Source of the DNA: Bacteroidales bacterium
GTDB lineage: Bacteria > Bacteroidota > Bacteroidia > Bacteroidales > FEN-979
DNA: 64,000 bases
Reading direction: 5' to 3'
Assembly (NCBI GenBank): GCA_038244085.1
Contig: JBBRTX010000006.1
Location: forward strand, 20,891-84,890
In this document: positions 6,798 through 50,247 of the stretch, in pieces
Position numbering within the stretch: the stretch's first letter is position 1
Layout of the letters: every line of letters starts with the position of its first letter
Translations under genes and position numbers: made by a program
The notes under the pieces: generated by a model
Told to the model about the DNA's origin: nothing
Databases searched by the model: none
What the model saw: only the letters and a program-made list of their open reading frames with translations

Positions 6798-8445
6798 GTC
6801 CCAAAGCAGCTGGTCCCTGCAAATAGAGGATGTCCACGGGAATACTGGCTGTTCTAAGTTTGTCAATATCGGATTGAAGTGTTTGGCGGATCTTTCCGTT
6901 TGTTTCAAGATAAGCGGAAGCTCCCGGGTAATCTCCTTCGCCTTCAAATACCAACACCTTGTTTGCCCATTCATTCATAGCAATACGCATCTTGTCCATA
7001 TTGACTTTGTAAGTCCCTTCCGCACTTCTTTCAAAAGCGCCCTTGTCTTCAAAATAATTGAAACACATCATATTGGCTTTTCCATGGGAATCGGCAGCAC
7101 CAAAGCGGACAGAGCGGATGATCCCGGCCATAAAGGTCACAAAACAATCTTCCTGGGAAATGTCCTTGAGTTCGCCTTTTTCGATCAACTTCGAAACCAT
7201 GAAAAGACCCAGGATGTCAGCTTTTGCCTCTTCAAAAGAGGAATATTTTTCTTTCAACGCATCGCGCACGGTCCCTTTCCCATTGATGGTATTCTTGATA
7301 CCCAGTCCATGCGCCACTTCATGGAACATTACATTTGAAAAGAAGGCATCGAAAGTGATATTCTTCTTTTGAGAAGGATCGGTGAGCACATTGGAAATGG
7401 GAACCAGGATGCTCTCGAATTTTGCCTTCATGGCATTCTTTAACTGTAACCTTCTCGAGCCTTTTGCCAGTTGAACCTTCTCATCATTCGGGAGGTTGAT
7501 GGCAATGGTTTTTCCGCCTGCATTGGAATGACCTGTGACATAAATGATGTCGTAGGCATTCAGGTCGGATCCTGAAGCAGGCACCTCTTTTTTATATTTT
7601 GCATCGACCGGCAACTGTCGCTGAAGTTCAGGCAGCACACCGGTAAATTTTTCCAGTTTTTTGCTCCAGTCTTTATCCTTCACAAGAATGGCCGATTCGT
7701 ATGCAGTTTTATAACCAAAAAGTTCGTCTTCATAATTCTCAATTGGGCCTATCACAATGTCCAGTGTGTTGGTCTTCATATCCATCCAGGCCATGTCGCT
7801 GGCAAAATAGTCATCCGAAACCAGGGCATTGGCTCTCAGGGAAAGATATTTTTTCAGACCGGGATCCTCTGCCAGTTCGCTTGCTTTCTGAAGCAATTCA
7901 GCAGCCCTTCCGAGTTTTTGTTTAAATGCTTCGTGAAACCAGATTAGTTTGAGGCTCTTGTCATTATTTCTGCCAACCAGGGTATACTGACTGGTTTTAT
8001 CCTTTTCTTTCCATGCTTCAAATTCTTCTTTCGTCATATCCTGCGGATAAAAATTGGCTCCGGCAGGCTTTTCTCCGAAACTTTTCATGAAAGGCTTGTT
8101 CCCATTGAGTCTTTCCCAGGGTCCGTAATTGATTGATACAAAACGGCGAATCAGCGTATCCCCGATGGTATCCAGGAAGGCCGCTTTGGGACCAATTACC
8201 TGTTCCCAGTATAAATCGTCCATGATATCAGCGGCTTCCATTAGCAGCGGAATCATTTCCTTCTCTTTATCTGTAAGTTTTGAAAGATTGGTTGTGAGTT
8301 TCACTACTGCAAACTCGTTGATTTTTGCATTGATCACCGAATCCTGCCCGGTAAGGTTGCCGGTTTTTCCATTGGAACTGCATCCTGTAAGTAAGGTTCC
8401 GGTCATAAATGCGATCGCTAAAATAATCAGATTGAATTTTGACAT
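6790..8445 (-). CDS. Zn-metallopeptidase lipoprotein, DPP III (M49)-like
   Basis: HEVAHGLG plus a downstream EEAKAD resemble the HExxGH / EExxAE(D) pair of family M49. The start is placed at MSKFNLIILAIAFMTGTLLTGCSS (lipoprotein signal), because the -7 box at 8467-8474 lies inside the longer ORF-track version. Confidence 0.5.
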   Translation of the reverse strand: MSKFNLIILAIAFMTGTLLTGCSSNGKTGNLTGQDSVINAKINEFAVVKLTTNLSKLTDKEKEMIPLLMEAADIMDDLYWEQVIGPKAAFLDTIGDTLIRRFVSINYGPWERLNGNKPFMKSFGEKPAGANFYPQDMTKEEFEAWKEKDKTSQYTLVGRNNDKSLKLIWFHEAFKQKLGRAAELLQKASELAEDPGLKKYLSLRANALVSDDYFASDMAWMDMKTNTLDIVIGPIENYEDELFGYKTAYESAILVKDKDWSKKLEKFTGVLPELQRQLPVDAKYKKEVPASGSDLNAYDIIYVTGHSNAGGKTIAINLPNDEKVQLAKGSRRLQLKNAMKAKFESILVPISNVLTDPSQKKNITFDAFFSNVMFHEVAHGLGIKNTINGKGTVRDALKEKYSSFEEAKADILGLFMVSKLIEKGELKDISQEDCFVTFMAGIIRSVRFGAADSHGKANMMCFNYFEDKGAFERSAEGTYKVNMDKMRIAMNEWANKVLVFEGEGDYPGASAYLETNGKIRQTLQSDIDKLRTASIPVDILYLQGPAALGLK

Positions 8446-20780: not shown

Positions 20781-20866
20781 TGGAGAGATGGCAGAGTGGT
20801 CGATTGCGGCGGTCTTGAAAACCGTTGAGGTGCAAGCCTCCGGGGGTTCGAATCCCTCTCTCTCCG
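20781..20866 (+). tRNA. tRNA-Ser (anticodon UGA)
   Basis: Acceptor GGAGAGA/TCTCTCC, anticodon stem GCGGT/ACCGT with loop CT-TGA-AA, a long variable arm, and a GGTTCGAATCC T-loop. Confidence 0.9.
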
Positions 20867-20901
20867 CATATTGACCTCACACGCAAACACACATTTGCCT
20901 C

Positions 20902-20988
20902 GGAGAGATGCCAGAGCGGTCGAATGGGGCGGTCTCGAAAACCGTTGATCCCTTACGGGGTCCGGGGGTTCGAATCCCCCTCTCTCCG
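20902..20988 (+). tRNA. tRNA-Ser (anticodon CGA)
   Basis: Same acceptor and T-arm as the first tRNA, anticodon loop CT-CGA-AA, and a long variable arm. Confidence 0.9.
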
Positions 20989-21033
20989 CACAATACTGCC
21001 TGAACCCTTCTTTTAGCTTAAATCCCGGAAAAT

Positions 21034-44147: not shown

Positions 44148-45681
44148 CTCGTAACAAGTCGTTTATGGTTTTAACGGGATTAAAAGTGATGATAGGGATT
44201 TCAACAAAAATCGTAATCCACCCGGCCATTGATCCATTCCACAAACCAGGAAGTTCCTGCGCCTTGATCTCCCTTCCTCCGAAAGACTTCACTGAAATGA
44301 GCCCTGTTGAATCATCCACAAAATCAGCCAGGATAAACTTTTGCCCATGGTAATTTTTTATACAACAAACGAGATCTACAGGATTAAAATGTGTTGAGGA
44401 GGCTAAAATTTTCCGCTGGATCTCGTTATTCATGTCAATTTGCGCTGATTCAACGATTTGCAGGCTAATTTTCCCTGCCTCATCTTTCACCCAGAAAGGT
44501 CCGCCACCGGGTTCACCTTCATTTTTTACCATGCCGCAAATGCGAATCGGGCGATTAAAACGGGTTTTGAGTTCTTCCAGTATGATTTCCCGTTCTTTTT
44601 TAATCAGATCCGGAGAAAATGAAAGCAACATATTCTCTTCGGCAAATTTCACAGCTGCAAGAATTTCTTCCTCCGACAAGGAACCATTTTCGGCTTTTTT
44701 CAGAAAACTAAAGATAAATGCCCGGATCCAAAGCAGGTATCCTCCGATGAGTTTCTTGGAAGTGTAGGTCTCATTTTTCAACCGATCCGGTACAATGTTA
44801 TCAATGTTTTTGATAAAGATGATATCTGCATCAGGGATCATGAGATTCTGAAGGAGTGCACCATGTCCGGCCGGACGGAACAGGAGAGAACCGTCCGGAT
44901 TTCTTACCGGGTTATTCTCCATGTCAACGGCGATGGTATCTTTTGATGACTGCTGAAAAGAATGAGTGATTTCAAAAACCGTATTTAATGCCGATGAATA
45001 TTTTTCGGTAGCCATCTTCATTTTTTCATCAAATTTCCGGATATGCCCCGGCGATACGGTAAAATGAATGCGGGCTGTGCGGCAACCATCACTCGCATAA
45101 TGGGCTGCTTCTATCAGATGCTCTTCTGCTGCAACACGAGCGCCATCAGGGTAGGAGTGGAACTTGATCAGTGCCTTGGGAAGTTCGGCATACCCCAACT
45201 TCTCACCGATAAGCAACGCACGAATCAGTTTTTTATATTCTCCGCTATCTATCAGCCCTTGAACGGATGTGCCTGTTTCTTTCAGCACATGATCAAGATC
45301 ATTATAAAAGGCAAAATTCCGGATTCGTTTGATAAACCGGTAAACAGAATCAGAACCCTGATCTTTCTCAATGATTTCCATGGATACTTCATCATCACCC
45401 TCTTTATCCAGGAACTCAAACAGTTTTTTGAACATGCGGCTGGCAGCTCCGGAGGCAGGAACAAATTTCTGAATCTTATAATGCCTGAAGTGTTGGTCAT
45501 AATATGTCAAAAAGAAATTTCTCTTTTCCCCTTCGAATTTCATGATGCCATCGCCTACACCAGCATGCCTTTCCAACCTGATGTGCGGAAAGCCTTTCCT
45601 GAAATTTTCCAGCTGTTTTCTGATCGTTTCCGGCTCAATGTCTTTGGCTTCAATCTGCAAATGATCCAAATTGCTCAGCAT
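44134..45681 (-). CDS. DUF4301-like protein (nucleotidyltransferase-like, function unknown)
   Basis: KFVPASGAASRMFK resembles the glycine-rich loop of UDP-sugar pyrophosphorylase-type folds. The start is placed at MLSNLDHLQ, because the longer ORF-track version would overlap the divergent S8 peptidase gene. Confidence 0.4.
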   Translation of the reverse strand: MLSNLDHLQIEAKDIEPETIRKQLENFRKGFPHIRLERHAGVGDGIMKFEGEKRNFFLTYYDQHFRHYKIQKFVPASGAASRMFKKLFEFLDKEGDDEVSMEIIEKDQGSDSVYRFIKRIRNFAFYNDLDHVLKETGTSVQGLIDSGEYKKLIRALLIGEKLGYAELPKALIKFHSYPDGARVAAEEHLIEAAHYASDGCRTARIHFTVSPGHIRKFDEKMKMATEKYSSALNTVFEITHSFQQSSKDTIAVDMENNPVRNPDGSLLFRPAGHGALLQNLMIPDADIIFIKNIDNIVPDRLKNETYTSKKLIGGYLLWIRAFIFSFLKKAENGSLSEEEILAAVKFAEENMLLSFSPDLIKKEREIILEELKTRFNRPIRICGMVKNEGEPGGGPFWVKDEAGKISLQIVESAQIDMNNEIQRKILASSTHFNPVDLVCCIKNYHGQKFILADFVDDSTGLISVKSFGGREIKAQELPGLWNGSMAGWITIFVEIPIITFNPVKTINDLLRDEHQ

Positions 45682-45735
45682 GTGGGGATAGATTTGTTGT
45701 AACTTTATTGCGAATTTACTTGAATCTGAGCTATT

Positions 45736-47409
45736 ATGCAAAAAATGAAGTTTCTTCTCGTTCTCAGCTTGTTCTTGGCTGAACTGTTTGTGGTTGCACA
45801 GGTTGCACCCGATAAATATTTTGTTGAGTTTAAGGATAAAAACGGGACACCTTATTCCATAAGCCAACCAGAACAATTTCTGTCACAGCGTGCCATTGAC
45901 AGAAGAAATACACAGTTCATCTCCTTTACAGATGAGGATCTTCCGGTAAATCCGGCCTATGTTCAGGCAGTCAGCGCTACCGGAGTGACGGTTCTTAATC
46001 GTACAAAATGGCTGAACGGCGTGTCGATCTATACCACGGATCCTGCTGCCCTTGCTGCAGTTCAAGCCTTACCCTTCGTGAAAAACGTCCTGAAGAAGAG
46101 TTCATCCTCCGCCAGGAACGAGATTCCCGATAAATTTCTCCTTGAAAATTTCCCAGGGTTACCGGTGAATGTCTCCAGCCTGATGACCAAAAACACCCTG
46201 CTTGGGTTCAATTATGGGCCATCCTACAACCAGATCCATATGCTGAACGGTGATCTGCTGCATACTAGCGGCTACAGGGGACAGGGCAAGGTGATTGCCA
46301 TACTGGATGGTGGTTTTCTAAATGCGGATCAAATCCAGGTCTTCGACAGTCTTAGGAATGAAGGAAGATTACTGGGGACAAAAGACTTCGTTGAACCGGG
46401 TGGGAATGTTTTCACTGCGAATTCGGCGCATGGTACCATGGTTCTGTCAACAATGGCAGGTAATATTCCCGGTCAGATCATAGGGACGGCTCCCAAGGCT
46501 TCCTATTGGCTGTTACGTACAGAAGATGTAATTACAGAATTCTTCCTTGAGGAATATAACTGGGTTTCAGGGGCTGAATTTGCGGATAGTGTTGGCGCTG
46601 ATGTGATTAACTCTTCGCTGGGTTATACTGAGTTCAACGAACCGACCTTTAATCACACGTGTGCAGACATGAATGGAAATACCACGGTCGTGACCCGGGG
46701 TGCAAACATCGCTGCCAGTAAGGGGATTGCAGTCGTAAACAGCGCGGGTAATTCAGGAGGTTCAGGTTGGACATGTGTAGGTGCGCCGGCTGATGGTAAT
46801 GAAGTTTTGGCCGTTGGTGCAGTCGATTCGCTCGGTAACTACGCATTTTTCAGTTCGGTAGGAGTAGATACGGCCGGCCGTGTGAAGCCGAATGTTGCAT
46901 CACAGGGAGAAAGTGCATTGGTTTGCGGGGCAAATGGATTTATTACCCGAAGCAACGGAACTTCTTTTTCATCGCCCATCATGGCGGGTATGGTTGCCTG
47001 TTTATGGCAGGCTCAACCTACAAGGAACCGCCAGGACCTTCTGCTGTCCATTGAAAAAAGTGCCAGCCATTACCTGAACCCTGATTCACTTACCGGTTAT
47101 GGAATTCCCAATTTTCAGCAAGCTTTACTCATTCTTTCTGTTTCTGAAAAGCAGATACTGAATTCTGTCGTTTATCCCAATCCTTTCCGCGATCAATTAT
47201 CTGTTCAGTTTAATGGACAGAAAGGGGAGAAGACAACCCTGGCTCTTTATGATGTAATGGGAAGAATGGTTGGAAAATGGATTACTTCTGCTACAGAAGG
47301 GGAAAACCGGCTTACACTGGAATCACTTTCCGGGCTGATCCCGGGTGTGTACTTGTTGACAATTGGTACACAAACTGCATCAACTTCTCTTCGGGTAGTT
47401 AAACTGTAA
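45736..47409 (+). CDS. S8 (subtilisin) family serine peptidase with T9SS C-terminal sorting domain
   Basis: Asp (GKVIAILDGG), His (HGTMVLST) and Ser (GTSFSSPIMAG) triad motifs. The C-terminal domain is VVYPNPFRDQLSV...LYDVMGRMV...GVYLLTI...LRVVKL. Confidence 0.85.
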   Translation: MQKMKFLLVLSLFLAELFVVAQVAPDKYFVEFKDKNGTPYSISQPEQFLSQRAIDRRNTQFISFTDEDLPVNPAYVQAVSATGVTVLNRTKWLNGVSIYTTDPAALAAVQALPFVKNVLKKSSSSARNEIPDKFLLENFPGLPVNVSSLMTKNTLLGFNYGPSYNQIHMLNGDLLHTSGYRGQGKVIAILDGGFLNADQIQVFDSLRNEGRLLGTKDFVEPGGNVFTANSAHGTMVLSTMAGNIPGQIIGTAPKASYWLLRTEDVITEFFLEEYNWVSGAEFADSVGADVINSSLGYTEFNEPTFNHTCADMNGNTTVVTRGANIAASKGIAVVNSAGNSGGSGWTCVGAPADGNEVLAVGAVDSLGNYAFFSSVGVDTAGRVKPNVASQGESALVCGANGFITRSNGTSFSSPIMAGMVACLWQAQPTRNRQDLLLSIEKSASHYLNPDSLTGYGIPNFQQALLILSVSEKQILNSVVYPNPFRDQLSVQFNGQKGEKTTLALYDVMGRMVGKWITSATEGENRLTLESLSGLIPGVYLLTIGTQTASTSLRVVKL

Positions 47410-47419
47410 CGTCCGAAGT

Positions 47420-47447
47420 GTTTACAAGTGTAATTACAATTGTAAAC
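47420..47447. repeat. 28-bp palindrome, copy 1 (GTTTACAAGTGTAATTACAATTGTAAAC)
   Basis: Read directly. It is a near-perfect inverted repeat centred on TGTAATTACA, 10 nt after the S8 peptidase stop. Confidence 0.85.
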
Positions 47448-47892
47448 AAAGTATAACACACGCTTCTACTCCATAGTATTGCTTGTTTTTACGATAGAAT
47501 TATCTACCGAACATTACTAATTCGTCGTATTTAATCAGCCTCACTTACCGCAAAAAGGTAATATCTTTCTGAACGGAACGATGCGTCTCCTCGCCTTAGC
47601 AGTGAAATTTAAACTATACTGGCACGATAGTGATTGATCAAATAAAAGAATGAGAGCAAGGATTATACGGATGGCCGCGGCTAAAATTAATAAACGTAAA
47701 TCAGCAACATCCGGGTTCATCAGTCTTCTAAAAAATCAGCATAAATTAGTAACATCCGCTTCATCAGCGTTCACTTTCTCCTTCATAAGAGGGGTGGAGG
47801 AGTTTGGGTTAATTCCCTGTAGCTTGCTATGAAGTGAAAGGATAAATTCCACTTTAATACCTTAAAGCCGCGAGGTATTTCATTACCAATTT

Positions 47893-47920
47893 GTTTACAT
47901 ATGTAATTACATTTGTAAAC
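47893..47920. repeat. 28-bp palindrome, copy 2 (GTTTACATATGTAATTACATTTGTAAAC)
   Basis: 25 of 28 positions are identical to copy 1. It contains a plus-strand TACATTTG -7-box match (47908-47915). Confidence 0.85.
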
Positions 47921-48137
47921 AATAATAAAACGGACTTCACCACAAATTTAGACAGATTATCAGTTATTAGCGACGATTAGCATCGTTGGCCCTAAGCCTT
48001 ATCACGGTAATCTGGTAAATTACTAATGATTATTGTGTTTACATTTGGAAAAACGACAATATTATTTGTCATATAGTATTAACAATCAGGAACTAAATAA
48101 TGTTTATTTAATTTATTACTTTATGTTAAAACAAAAT

Positions 48138-48155
48138 TTACAGTTATAACTGTAA
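48138..48155. repeat. Perfect 18-bp palindrome TTACAGTTATAACTGTAA
   Basis: Read directly. It has the same TTACA/TGTAA arms as the 28-bp palindromes and lies 26 nt upstream of the -7 box of the XRE gene. Confidence 0.8.
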
Positions 48156-48180
48156 TTGTCAAAAGATTGAAGGATTTTGT

Positions 48181-48188
48181 TACTTTTG
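48181..48188 (+). promoter_or_regulatory. -7 promoter box (TACTTTTG) for the XRE regulator, embedded in a TTAC-N4-GTAA palindrome
   Basis: TAnnTTTG, 19 nt upstream of the ATG at 48207. GTTACTTTTGTAAT (48179-48192) is an inverted repeat that overlaps it. Confidence 0.5.
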
Positions 48189-48206
48189 TAATGAAAATTA
48201 AGAATC

Positions 48207-48671
48207 ATGATTGAGCGGATTTTAGAAATTATCAGACAAAAGAATTTGACTCCTTCGCAATTTGCGGAAGAGATCGGGATCCAACGTTCCAGTATTTCTC
48301 ACCTCGTATCAGGGAGAAATAAACCAAGTCTTGAATTTATACAGAAGATACTGATACAATTTCCGGATATCAGTTCCGAGTGGTTATTATCCGGAACAGG
48401 AAGTATGATGAAGGCGCAAATGGATGGAGAGAATGCAACGGATACCCTTCCGCCGGCAGTGACGAAGACTGAAAAGAACCCGTCAGCGGATGAGTACAGT
48501 CTCTTATTTGATGCGGATCAAATCAATGAACCGGAAGTGCAACCCAAAACAGATTCCTCCCGCCAGATAAAAAAGAAGAACATGCCAGCCCCGGAAATAA
48601 GGCAGATTGAAAAGATCGTTTATTTTTATAAGGACATGACTTTCAGAGAGTACTATCCTGATAATGCCTAA
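48207..48671 (+). CDS. XRE-family helix-turn-helix transcriptional regulator
   Basis: LTPSQFAEEIGIQRSSISHLVSGRNKPSLEFIQKI is a clear HTH_3-type motif. The C-terminal half is low-complexity and unrecognised. Confidence 0.75.
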   Translation: MIERILEIIRQKNLTPSQFAEEIGIQRSSISHLVSGRNKPSLEFIQKILIQFPDISSEWLLSGTGSMMKAQMDGENATDTLPPAVTKTEKNPSADEYSLLFDADQINEPEVQPKTDSSRQIKKKNMPAPEIRQIEKIVYFYKDMTFREYYPDNA

Positions 48672-49087
48672 TATTGTTCCATCAGCGAAAAGAAAAACCG
48701 TTCTTCCCGTAATGCATTTTCATCGCTGTCGGAAGCATGGATGGCATTTTCCTGGACACTTTTCCCATAAAGTTTACGTATGGTTCCGGGTGCAGCCGCA
48801 TTTGGATCGGTAGCACCAATCAGCTTTCTGAAATCCAGCACTGCGTCATCTTTTTCAAGAATCATGGCAACCACGTGTCCTGAGGACATAAAGCCGATTA
48901 ACCCATCAAAAAAAGGCTTTCCCTGGTGTTCCTGGTAAAAAATGGAAGCCTGGATATTGGTAAGGTGCGTCAGTTTCATAGCCATAATCCTGAAGCCCGC
49001 TTCTTCAATTCTTGTGATAATGGGTCCTGCCAGCTGATCTCGCACTGCGCTGGGTTTTATCATGGTAAAAGTTCTGTTTCCGGCCAT
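48668..49087 (-). CDS. ndk: Nucleoside-diphosphate kinase
   Basis: RTFTMIKPSAV...GFRIMAMKL...NAIHASDS (catalytic His). The start is placed at MAGNRTF, and the -7 box at 49115-49122 lies inside the longer ORF-track version. Confidence 0.9.
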   Translation of the reverse strand: MAGNRTFTMIKPSAVRDQLAGPIITRIEEAGFRIMAMKLTHLTNIQASIFYQEHQGKPFFDGLIGFMSSGHVVAMILEKDDAVLDFRKLIGATDPNAAAPGTIRKLYGKSVQENAIHASDSDENALREERFFFSLMEQY

Positions 49088-49114
49088 AATTTTTATTTTG
49101 GGATTTCTGTTAAA

Positions 49115-49122
49115 CAAATGTA
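49115..49122 (-). promoter_or_regulatory. -7 promoter box (TACATTTG) for ndk
   Basis: TAnnTTTG on the minus strand, 28 nt upstream of the ATG at 49087. Confidence 0.55.
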
Positions 49123-49193
49123 TAAATAATAATGTGATCCTGGGTTTCTCGTTCATGATATTCCCAGAATAGCCACAAATCCTGAAAAATCTT

Positions 49194-49201
49194 TACATTT
49201 G
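49194..49201 (+). promoter_or_regulatory. -7 promoter box (TACATTTG) for nrnA and the FKBP genes
   Basis: TAnnTTTG, 18 nt upstream of the GTG at 49219. Confidence 0.5.
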
Positions 49202-49218
49202 CGTTTAAATTTCGAATT

Positions 49219-50247
49219 GTGCCCATAAAAGTAACGGATTTTCCAAAGATAAAGGAACTCCTCGACGCAACCCACGGAACGATCATCGTGACCACGCATA
49301 CCAACCCGGACGGAGATGCAATTGGTGCCAGTCTTTCCTTGTCAGGTTACCTCAGGAAGAAGGGGTTCAAGGTATCCACAATAATCCCCGATCCTGACCC
49401 TGTTTTCCTGCAATGGATGCCCTTTCACGACAGCATCCGCATATTTTCGGAAGCTCCGGAAGAATGTTCAAAGCTGATCGGAGAAGCAGAACTCATTTTT
49501 TGCCTTGATTTTAACGGGCTAAGCCGTGTTTCCAAAGCCGAGACTGCATTTCGCAAAGCCACGGCAAAAAAGGTACTCATTGATCACCATACCAATCCGA
49601 AACCGGATTTTGATCTGATGATTTCGGTTGTGTCTGCCTCCTCCACCTGTGAATTGGTTTATGATTTCATTGAAGATTCAGGGGATCTTGCATTAATTGA
49701 CAAACCCATCGCTTCCTGTATCTATGCCGGAATCATCACCGATACCGGTTCTTTCAGCTATTCCTGCGAAAATGAACGGCCCTACCTGATTGCTGCTGAC
49801 CTGGTGAAAAGAGGGGTTAACGGAGAGCAGGTTCACCGCCTGGTATATGATACCTATTCAGAAAACCGCCTCAGGTTACTGGGACATGCCATCAGCGAGC
49901 GTCTGCACGTTTTGCCGGAATACCATGCCGCCTATATTGCCCTTACCAAAGATGACCTTGACCGGTTTAACCACCAGGTAGGCGATACAGAAGATATTGT
50001 CAATTTCGCACTCTCCATCGGGAGTGTCAATTTTGCTGCCTTATTTTATGACAGGGGGGATGAAGTAAAAGTATCCCTGAGATCAAAAGGCCATTTCTCA
50101 GTGAATGCCGTTGCAACAAAATATTTCAATGGAGGAGGTCACGTCAATGCAGCCGGGGCAACAACCTACATCAGTCTTGAAGAGACGGTCAACATTTTTC
50201 TTTCGTTACTTCCCATATATGAAAAGGAATTAAAAGCCGTTTACTGA
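49219..50247 (+). CDS. nrnA: DHH/DHHA1 phosphoesterase (NrnA-like oligoribonuclease / pAp phosphatase)
   Basis: VTTHTNPDGDAIGASL, LIDHHTN (DHH motif) and GGGHVNAAG (DHHA1). Confidence 0.8.
   Translation: MPIKVTDFPKIKELLDATHGTIIVTTHTNPDGDAIGASLSLSGYLRKKGFKVSTIIPDPDPVFLQWMPFHDSIRIFSEAPEECSKLIGEAELIFCLDFNGLSRVSKAETAFRKATAKKVLIDHHTNPKPDFDLMISVVSASSTCELVYDFIEDSGDLALIDKPIASCIYAGIITDTGSFSYSCENERPYLIAADLVKRGVNGEQVHRLVYDTYSENRLRLLGHAISERLHVLPEYHAAYIALTKDDLDRFNHQVGDTEDIVNFALSIGSVNFAALFYDRGDEVKVSLRSKGHFSVNAVATKYFNGGGHVNAAGATTYISLEETVNIFLSLLPIYEKELKAVY

Follow-up and report, generated by a model that had tools for sequence, protein, structure and literature searches.

A conserved array of predicted operator sites upstream of an XRE-family regulator gene in Bacteroidales

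The repressors of phages 434, lambda and P22 are associated with multiple palindromic operators on the repressor's own promoter, with strong and weak distant sites, and those of lambda cooperate by looping. SinR, Xre (PBSX), the controller (C) proteins of restriction-modification (R-M) systems and DdrO are small autoregulators of the XRE type, chromosomal or element-borne, whose promoters contain two to four palindromic sites. The BlaI, MecI and CopY repressors have operators with the core TACAnnTGTA, which are often paired (PMC7253601). Here we compare with these systems a 797-bp intergenic region located at positions 47410-48206 of a 64-kb stretch of Bacteroidales DNA (contig JBBRTX010000006.1), hereafter referred to as the window. 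The region is followed on the plus strand by the gene for an XRE-family regulator of 154 amino acids (48207-48671). We consider it likely, from comparative sequence evidence, that the region is a cis-regulatory array of multiple operators bound by the adjacent XRE protein, and that this array is autoregulatory and probably cooperative or looping. The predicted operator consensus is (G)TTTACA-N2-TGTAAA(C).

The most extensive sites in the region are two 28-bp palindromes, GTTTACAAGTGTAATTACAATTGTAAAC (47420-47447) and GTTTACATATGTAATTACATTTGTAAAC (47893-47920), which are equal at 25 of the 28 positions and located 473 bp apart. Each of these consists of two abutting 12-bp palindromes of the form TTACA-N2-TGTAA, detected as a period of 12 with TRF. 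In the predicted distal double operator, the perfect 12-bp sites are TTACAAGTGTAA (47422-47433) and TTACAATTGTAA (47434-47445), and in the predicted central double operator they are located at 47895-47906 and 47907-47918. A degenerate pattern for the 28-mer yielded 2 matches in the window and none in 100 shuffled sequences. In total, the 797-bp region contained 4 exact and 4 one-mismatch TTACA-N2-TGTAA sites, or 8 at no more than one mismatch, whereas 0.003 exact sites and 0.10 sites at this mismatch level were expected under a first-order Markov model with the region's own composition. Searches for TTACAnnTGTAA with no more than one mismatch identified 10 matches in the entire window, for which 1.8 were expected, and 8 of these were located within 47422-48191. 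Sites that are this much more frequent than expected by chance, and confined to the region, argue for an operator array. A regulon search of the 64-kb window with a position weight matrix gave no convincing further site, the best outside match (position 7329, 9 bits) being located inside an open reading frame (ORF).

All four perfect sites are distal to the XRE gene, with the doubles at -300/-312 and -773/-785 from its start. The distal double begins 11 bp past the stop codon of the upstream gene, which codes for an S8 peptidase with a sorting tail for the type IX secretion system (T9SS), and the right half of the central double, TTACATTTGTAA, doubles as a plus-strand Bacteroidetes -7 box (47908-47915). 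The AT-rich promoter-proximal stretch that follows (47921-48206, 21-30% GC) holds three weaker sites. The first of these (48034-48051) contains the half-site GTTTACA (48037-48043) and a single one-mismatch site, TTACATTTGGAA (48039-48050), at -168, and overlaps a plus-strand TAnnTTTG box at 48040-48047. The second is a perfect 18-bp palindrome, TTACA-GTTATAAC-TGTAA (48138-48155), in which the half-sites are arranged as 5-8-5; it can be read as two overlapping one-mismatch sites and adjoins the expected -33 position of the XRE promoter. The third, TTACTTTTGTAA (48180-48191, plus strand), is part of the sequence GTTACTTTTGTAAT (48179-48192) and encloses the XRE -7 box TACTTTTG (48181-48188), which is located 19 nt before the ATG. 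TAnnTTTG boxes were found on the plus strand at 47908, 48040 and 48181, and on the minus strand at 47950-47943. The palindromes, the half-site and the candidate -7 boxes in both orientations had been described in an earlier note made from the sequence of the window, and all were recovered here at the same positions.

To place these sites in a comparative context, we collected loci with XRE homologues 30-59% identical to the protein of the window: 80 from GTDB species genomes, 80 from metagenomes and several closer ones by exact-protein look-ups. The sources were metagenome-assembled genomes (MAGs) of Bacteroidales, Prolixibacteraceae and Marinilabiliaceae. Similarity searches covered 170 loci, and sites were counted over the 158 unique (non-redundant) loci, which are referred to below by number where needed. 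Exact copies of TTACAnnTGTAA numbered 280 within 850 bp upstream of the XRE start, as against 5 in the other 801 kb, which corresponds to densities of 2.25 per kb upstream of the XRE homologues and 0.006 per kb elsewhere. Where a locus had no exact match, one-mismatch versions occupied the corresponding positions. What is observed directly is the sites, their placement with respect to the promoter elements, their conservation and their exclusive linkage to this family of XRE genes. Of the three explanations offered in the earlier note, the first, in which the palindromes serve as operators of the neighbouring XRE protein, is strongly supported by the conservation of the sites upstream of homologues at the 158 loci.

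The organization of the array was most regular in a clade from the rumen (70 unique loci), where the sites are located at fixed offsets of -16, -93, -331, -365 and -401. They appear as near-totally conserved islands amid variable and very AT-rich DNA, while the central N2 is free to vary; conserved half-sites around a variable centre are the signature of a protein-binding site. Relatives share the AT-rich spacer of the window, and in this clade its length between the -331 and -93 sites is fixed at 237 bp. The site at -401 always reads as a plus-strand TAnnTTTG box, which points to an additional promoter at a distance from the gene or to binding sites of another factor. This clade also has a block of about 110 bp that is conserved from -505 to -410 (L034:3499-3601; about 90 loci) and directly precedes the most distal site. 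It contains three copies of GCGAWWTTT, the first of which is inverted and forms a hairpin with the second, followed by a T-run. No Rfam match was obtained for this segment (L034, 3300-4100), RNAalifold gave no consensus structure for the plus or the minus strand, and the block was not found in the window with nhmmer.

Among loci more similar to that of the window, the closest relative with available DNA is L081 (59% protein identity), in which the two doubles are only 68 bp apart and one site is located directly past the S8 stop codon. A double equivalent to the central one is present at -250 to -500 from the ATG in L081, L165, L168, L001 and L172, and sites at -156 to -175 in L081, L001 and L168 match the -168 site of the window. 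Likewise, the 18-bp palindrome has a counterpart in L083 and L084, the 5-8-5 element TTACA-ATTTTTTC-TGTAA, and TTACTTTTGTAA is kept at -25 to -27 in L081, L001, L170 and L083. The XRE promoters of both clades resemble that of the window, with sites across the -7 box and flanking the -33 region. A BLAST search with the entire 797 bp against the relatives matched the palindromes only, and a 26-bp core of the double site, TTTACAnnTGTAATTACAnnTGTAAA, was invariant in 12 copies from 10 loci, whose flanks are unrelated and whose N2 positions vary. The genes upstream of the array vary by clade, encoding for example a 4Fe-4S protein in L008 but, in the clade of the window, the S8 peptidase, indicating that the array travels with the XRE gene. 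In L081, a run of short TGATTT-rich repeats, gattttatgattttttgatttctgattccggattgatttatctgattgctgatttctgaattctgatttt (L081:421-520), is situated between the central double and the proximal sites; nothing comparable is present in the window.

Across about 0.9 Mb of related loci and 2.9 million viral contigs, occurrences of the 28-mer were essentially restricted to the DNA preceding XRE homologues. The scan of the viral contigs for the double site yielded 3 matches, two of which were in AT-rich giant-virus MAGs. In the third (L172), the double site precedes a further XRE homologue, likewise equipped with this array, by 447 bp. This contig, listed as 'viral' in IMG/VR, has a GC content of 49% and carries, besides the array and the XRE homologue, another XRE-like ORF that is more distant and lies on the opposite strand (positions 1140-1615 and 7961-8176). 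It may represent a misclassified bacterial fragment or an element that captured the module.

The XRE protein contains a lambda-repressor-like DNA-binding domain according to Pfam, the fold model and Foldseek. The matches to Pfam were to HTH_3 (E = 2.6e-10; 40.6 bits against a cut-off of 23) and HTH_19 (33.5 against 30.2), and the AlphaFold model showed a five-helix XRE domain at residues 1-65 with a predicted local distance difference test score (pLDDT) >90. The helix-turn-helix (HTH) domain is followed by a disordered linker of low complexity, which varies from about 20 to 150 residues between relatives, and by an invariant C-terminal motif of about 20 amino acids (residues 135-152), IEKIVYFYKDMTFREYYP, for which the family form is IEKIVxFYxDxTF(R/E)EYxPE. 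A beta-hairpin is predicted for this motif (pLDDT about 85-90), which lies outside all Pfam domains; neither Peptidase_S24 nor any other C-terminal Pfam domain was found. Foldseek neighbours included the 434 repressor and Cro and P22 c2 (phage matches 2or1, 1pra and 3jxb), SinR, C proteins of R-M systems, DdrO and HigA. No specific NCBIfam model scored above its cut-off (best RstR, 29 bits against 80), no PHROG or PDB family beyond the generic HTH applies, and full-text literature searches gave no description of the XRE family or its motif in Bacteroidetes.

Two features of the protein bear on the identity of the binder. Alignments showed that residues Q26, S28, S31, H32, S35, G36, R37 and N38 in the region of the recognition helix are invariant across the family; an invariant recognition helix matches an invariant half-site and supports the XRE protein as the binder. 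Furthermore, the fold is of the type seen in the 434 repressor, SinR and the C proteins, members of which bind palindromic operators as dimers, which supports binding by dimers here. From these features and the linkage at the 158 loci we infer that the XRE protein is the binder, with repression and looping as the predicted consequences. Dimers of the XRE protein would bind the (G)TTTACA-N2-TGTAAA(C) operators of the array, filling the strong distal doubles, which are of tetramer size, first. From there, the bound protein would form a bridge over the flexible AT-rich DNA to the weak sites near the promoter, either by cooperativity or by a DNA loop, and possibly via the conserved C-terminal beta-hairpin on its disordered linker. 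With three imperfect sites covering the gene's own promoter, such bridging would shut off transcription of the XRE gene, as negative autoregulation.

Several observations weigh against this model of an autoregulatory array. Co-localization with the XRE gene is not proof of binding by its product, and TACAnnTGTA is also the operator core of the winged-helix BlaI, MecI and CopY repressors (PMC7253601). The centre-to-centre distance of the half-sites, 7-9 bp, is short for a classical XRE dimer. The spacings in the rumen clade (77, 238 and 70 bp) correspond to non-integral numbers of helical turns, so that in-phase looping is not obviously enforced, and the distance between the doubles varies from 68 to 473 bp among the relatives. 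Finally, the sign of the regulation, whether repression or activation, is read from promoter overlap only.

The segment of 445 bp between the two doubles of the window (47448-47892, 38-39% GC) differs from the array in that it contains no palindromic sites, even at up to two mismatches. No DNA or peptide similarity to it was detected in the window or the 170 loci with BLASTN, nhmmer and six-frame tblastn, or in PLSDB plasmids and INPHARED phages with blastn. In the rumen clade the distal sites are separated by 70 bp, and other relatives contain 160-300 bp of unrelated sequence at the corresponding position. The lack of homologues, the 68 bp between the doubles of L081 and the unrelated sequences in the others identify the segment as a lineage-specific spacer. 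Judging from these comparisons, it is a non-conserved spacer rather than a functional element of the array, a conserved small RNA (sRNA) or a miniature inverted-repeat transposable element (MITE). A degenerate tandem duplication of about 45 bp, below the TRF threshold, was observed within it at 47689-47778 (AATAAACGTAAATCAGCAACATCCG...TTCATCAGTCTTC / AATCAGCATAAATTAGTAACATCCG...TTCATCAGCGTTC).

The second explanation in the earlier note was that the same 445 bp contain a minus-strand transcription unit for an sRNA or a small protein, read from the box TAAATTTG (47950-47943) and bracketed by the palindromes. A candidate for the small protein is the ORF of 59 amino acids at 47720-47541, and the palindromes would gate the unit. 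In line with this, the minus-strand TAnnTTTG box is located just to the right of the second 28-mer, the ORF has a hydrophobic stretch and the GC content of the segment is above that of the rest of the region. However, the box has no TTTG -33 element at the proper spacing and is not conserved in L081, L168 or L001, while the segment itself has no DNA or peptide homologue in relatives and is absent from L081. The covariance-model search that the earlier note had proposed gave no match in Rfam 15 (E ≤ 1) for either strand of 46500-49500, and the folding of the segment was no more stable than that of shuffled sequences (z = -0.45 and -0.81 for the two strands). None of its ORFs matched Pfam and the ORF of 59 amino acids is not conserved. 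With no homologue, Rfam match, excess structure or conserved ORF in its favour, we consider such a unit quite unlikely, and possible only as a strain-specific transcript.

The spacer may instead belong to the transcript of the upstream gene. In L165 (1527-1610) and L168 (1598-1680), a canonical terminator, with a hairpin and a T-run, is located right after the gene for the S8/T9SS peptidase. In the window, the distal double lies at this position (47409-47460), and a terminator-like hairpin is encountered only about 370 bp downstream: CTCCTTCATAAGAGGGGTGGAGGAG followed by TTTGGGTTAA (47778-47812, plus strand, with the hairpin at 47778-47802), a candidate for the end of the S8 transcript. Since the window has no terminator directly after the S8 gene and has a hairpin at 47778-47802, the 445-bp segment may represent the 3' untranslated region of the S8 peptidase gene, for which the signal is weak (1 match in the search for terminator-like hairpins against 0.5 expected by chance).

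A different interpretation accepts the sites as operators and assigns them to another trans-acting regulator, for example a winged-helix repressor of the BlaI/MecI/CopY type, with the XRE gene merely as a target. The central 10 bp of every site do correspond to the 'cop box' or BlaI-MecI core, and all four perfect sites fit the extended cop-box consensus RNYKACANNTGTMRNY (PMC7253601). Against this, the sites track the XRE gene through different gene neighbourhoods, with 280 copies upstream of it and 5 in 801 kb elsewhere. Sites would also be predicted at the operon of such a regulator itself, and the flanks contained none. No BlaI-like ORF was detected by tblastn in the window or the 170 loci, which is a weak test of limited sensitivity. 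We regard this interpretation as distinctly improbable.

It is also very improbable that the array is a chromosomal nucleoprotein site, similar to an origin or a centromere, organized by the adjacent HTH protein. The many clustered palindromes and, in the rumen clade, a very AT-rich spacer that keeps its length would be in agreement with such a site, as would the disordered linker and C-terminal interaction motif of the adjacent DNA-binding protein. But the sites overlap canonical elements of the XRE promoter and no gene for a ParA-like or replication protein is adjacent. There is no DnaA box similar to TTATCCACA at 44320-49372, and the 15 such boxes in the whole window (≤1 mismatch) compare with 18 expected. 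The cumulative GC skew rises monotonically through the region, with no turning point. A chromosomal origin was thus rejected, based on the lack of DnaA boxes and of a switch in skew.

The third explanation in the earlier note, in which the 28-mers are terminal inverted repeats of a MITE, a duplicated target or copies of a genome-wide repetitive extragenic palindromic (REP)-like repeat, is hardly credible, since the two arms (47419-47450 and 47890-47921), although 32 nt long, 91% complementary and flanking 439 bp of a lineage-specific inner segment, are each palindromes by themselves and conserved as stand-alone sites upstream of XRE homologues that lack the 445 bp, there is no transposase remnant, and no copy of the 28-mer beyond these two, or of the inner segment, was found in the 64-kb window, about 0.9 Mb of related loci, plasmids or phages. 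An identity extended to 31 bp between the two copies (TGTTTACA...TGTAAACAA), examined as a possible target-site duplication, was rejected as a sign of recent duplication since it is a conserved property of the sites in relatives.

Located between the S8 peptidase gene (45736-47409, plus strand) and the XRE gene, the region is overlapped by no ORF of at least 150 amino acids and exceeds all other gaps between such ORFs in the window in length, which agrees with its description as the longest gene-free stretch. It had also been described as AT-rich, which is true overall (GC content of 0.33 against about 0.44 for the window) but not of the inner 445 bp, strong AT-richness being limited to 47900-48206. 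The XRE gene is followed by ndk on the minus strand, a gene for a DHH phosphoesterase and two FKBP genes. In the clade of the window, the gene order is DUF4301, S8 peptidase, long intergenic region, XRE, ndk, DHH and FKBP, with 530-970 bp between the S8 peptidase and XRE genes. ARAGORN identified two neighbouring tRNA-Ser genes with the anticodons TGA and CGA at a distance from the array (20782-20989, plus strand) and no other tRNA genes.

In three different clades, a gene for nucleotide supply is located directly 3' of the XRE gene: nrdG-nrdD in 23, pyrK/pyrD in 5 and ndk in 4 of 121 loci (32 of 121 together), as exemplified by L008:4523-7116, L002:4632-6301 and 48668-49156 in the window. L002 also contains a perfect site, GTTACATATGTAAAC, 27 bp before the start codon of pyrK and downstream of the -7 box TATCTTTG; the DNA preceding nrdD had none in 10 loci. 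Because genes for nucleotide supply (ndk, nrdDG or pyrKD) adjoin the XRE gene at these 32 loci, and because of the site in the pyrK leader, we also considered that the XRE protein and its array of 400-800 bp could be a conserved higher-order nucleoprotein switch rather than a simple autorepressor, for example a looped and possibly bistable module that senses a signal of nucleotide or dNTP supply. We regard this as unlikely. Still, a function beyond textbook autorepression is conceivable in view of the conservation, the odd protein architecture and a long AT-rich spacer whose length is fixed in one clade.

In Bacteroidota, the motifs bound by transcription factors have been little mapped. The analysis provides a precise, testable predicted operator for an uncharacterized XRE family that is conserved in Bacteroidales from the rumen, the gut and the environment. 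The family is notable for its unusual domain layout and for an array of sites that is unusually long and conserved in position. What was an anonymous helix-turn-helix protein is now a regulator with a predicted autoregulatory circuit, and a repressor/operator pair this compact could become a genetic tool in Bacteroidetes.

Compared to the systems described above, the proposed mechanism is a classical XRE repressor/operator arrangement in a family that is conserved and uncharacterized. The resemblance to the BlaI/MecI/CopY system is in the DNA: the 10-bp palindromic core is identical to that of the cop box and the sites are likewise paired (PMC7253601). The proteins that bind the cop box are, however, winged-helix Penicillinase_R proteins from bla, mec and cop operons, whereas the gene linked to the sites described here codes for an HTH_3 protein, and no operon of these types is present in the window or the related loci. 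The neighbours are genes for an S8 peptidase, XRE, NDK and DHH instead of a Penicillinase_R repressor with a BlaR1/M56 sensor or a cop ATPase.

In terms of protein structure, the closest matches, C.BclI among them, are in the group of SinR, the C proteins and DdrO (1b0n, 3zkc, 2b5a, 1y7y and 6jq1), from which the locus differs by the absence of SinI, of R-M genes and of the DdrO C-terminal domain with its IrrE protease. The five-helix XRE fold is also that of the 434, lambda and P22 repressors (Foldseek 2or1, 1pra, 3jxb). Unlike lambda CI, the XRE protein of the window has no S24 peptidase or other CI-type C-terminal oligomerization domain, which in CI serves octamer formation, and carries the linker and the beta-hairpin of about 20 amino acids in its place. 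In contrast to the phage systems, the locus lacks a divergent cro-like gene and is embedded not in a prophage but in housekeeping synteny of S8 peptidase, XRE, ndk, DHH and FKBP genes. The half-sites are 2 bp apart in a site of 12 bp, as compared to phage operators of 14-17 bp, and the array as a whole spans 400-800 bp.

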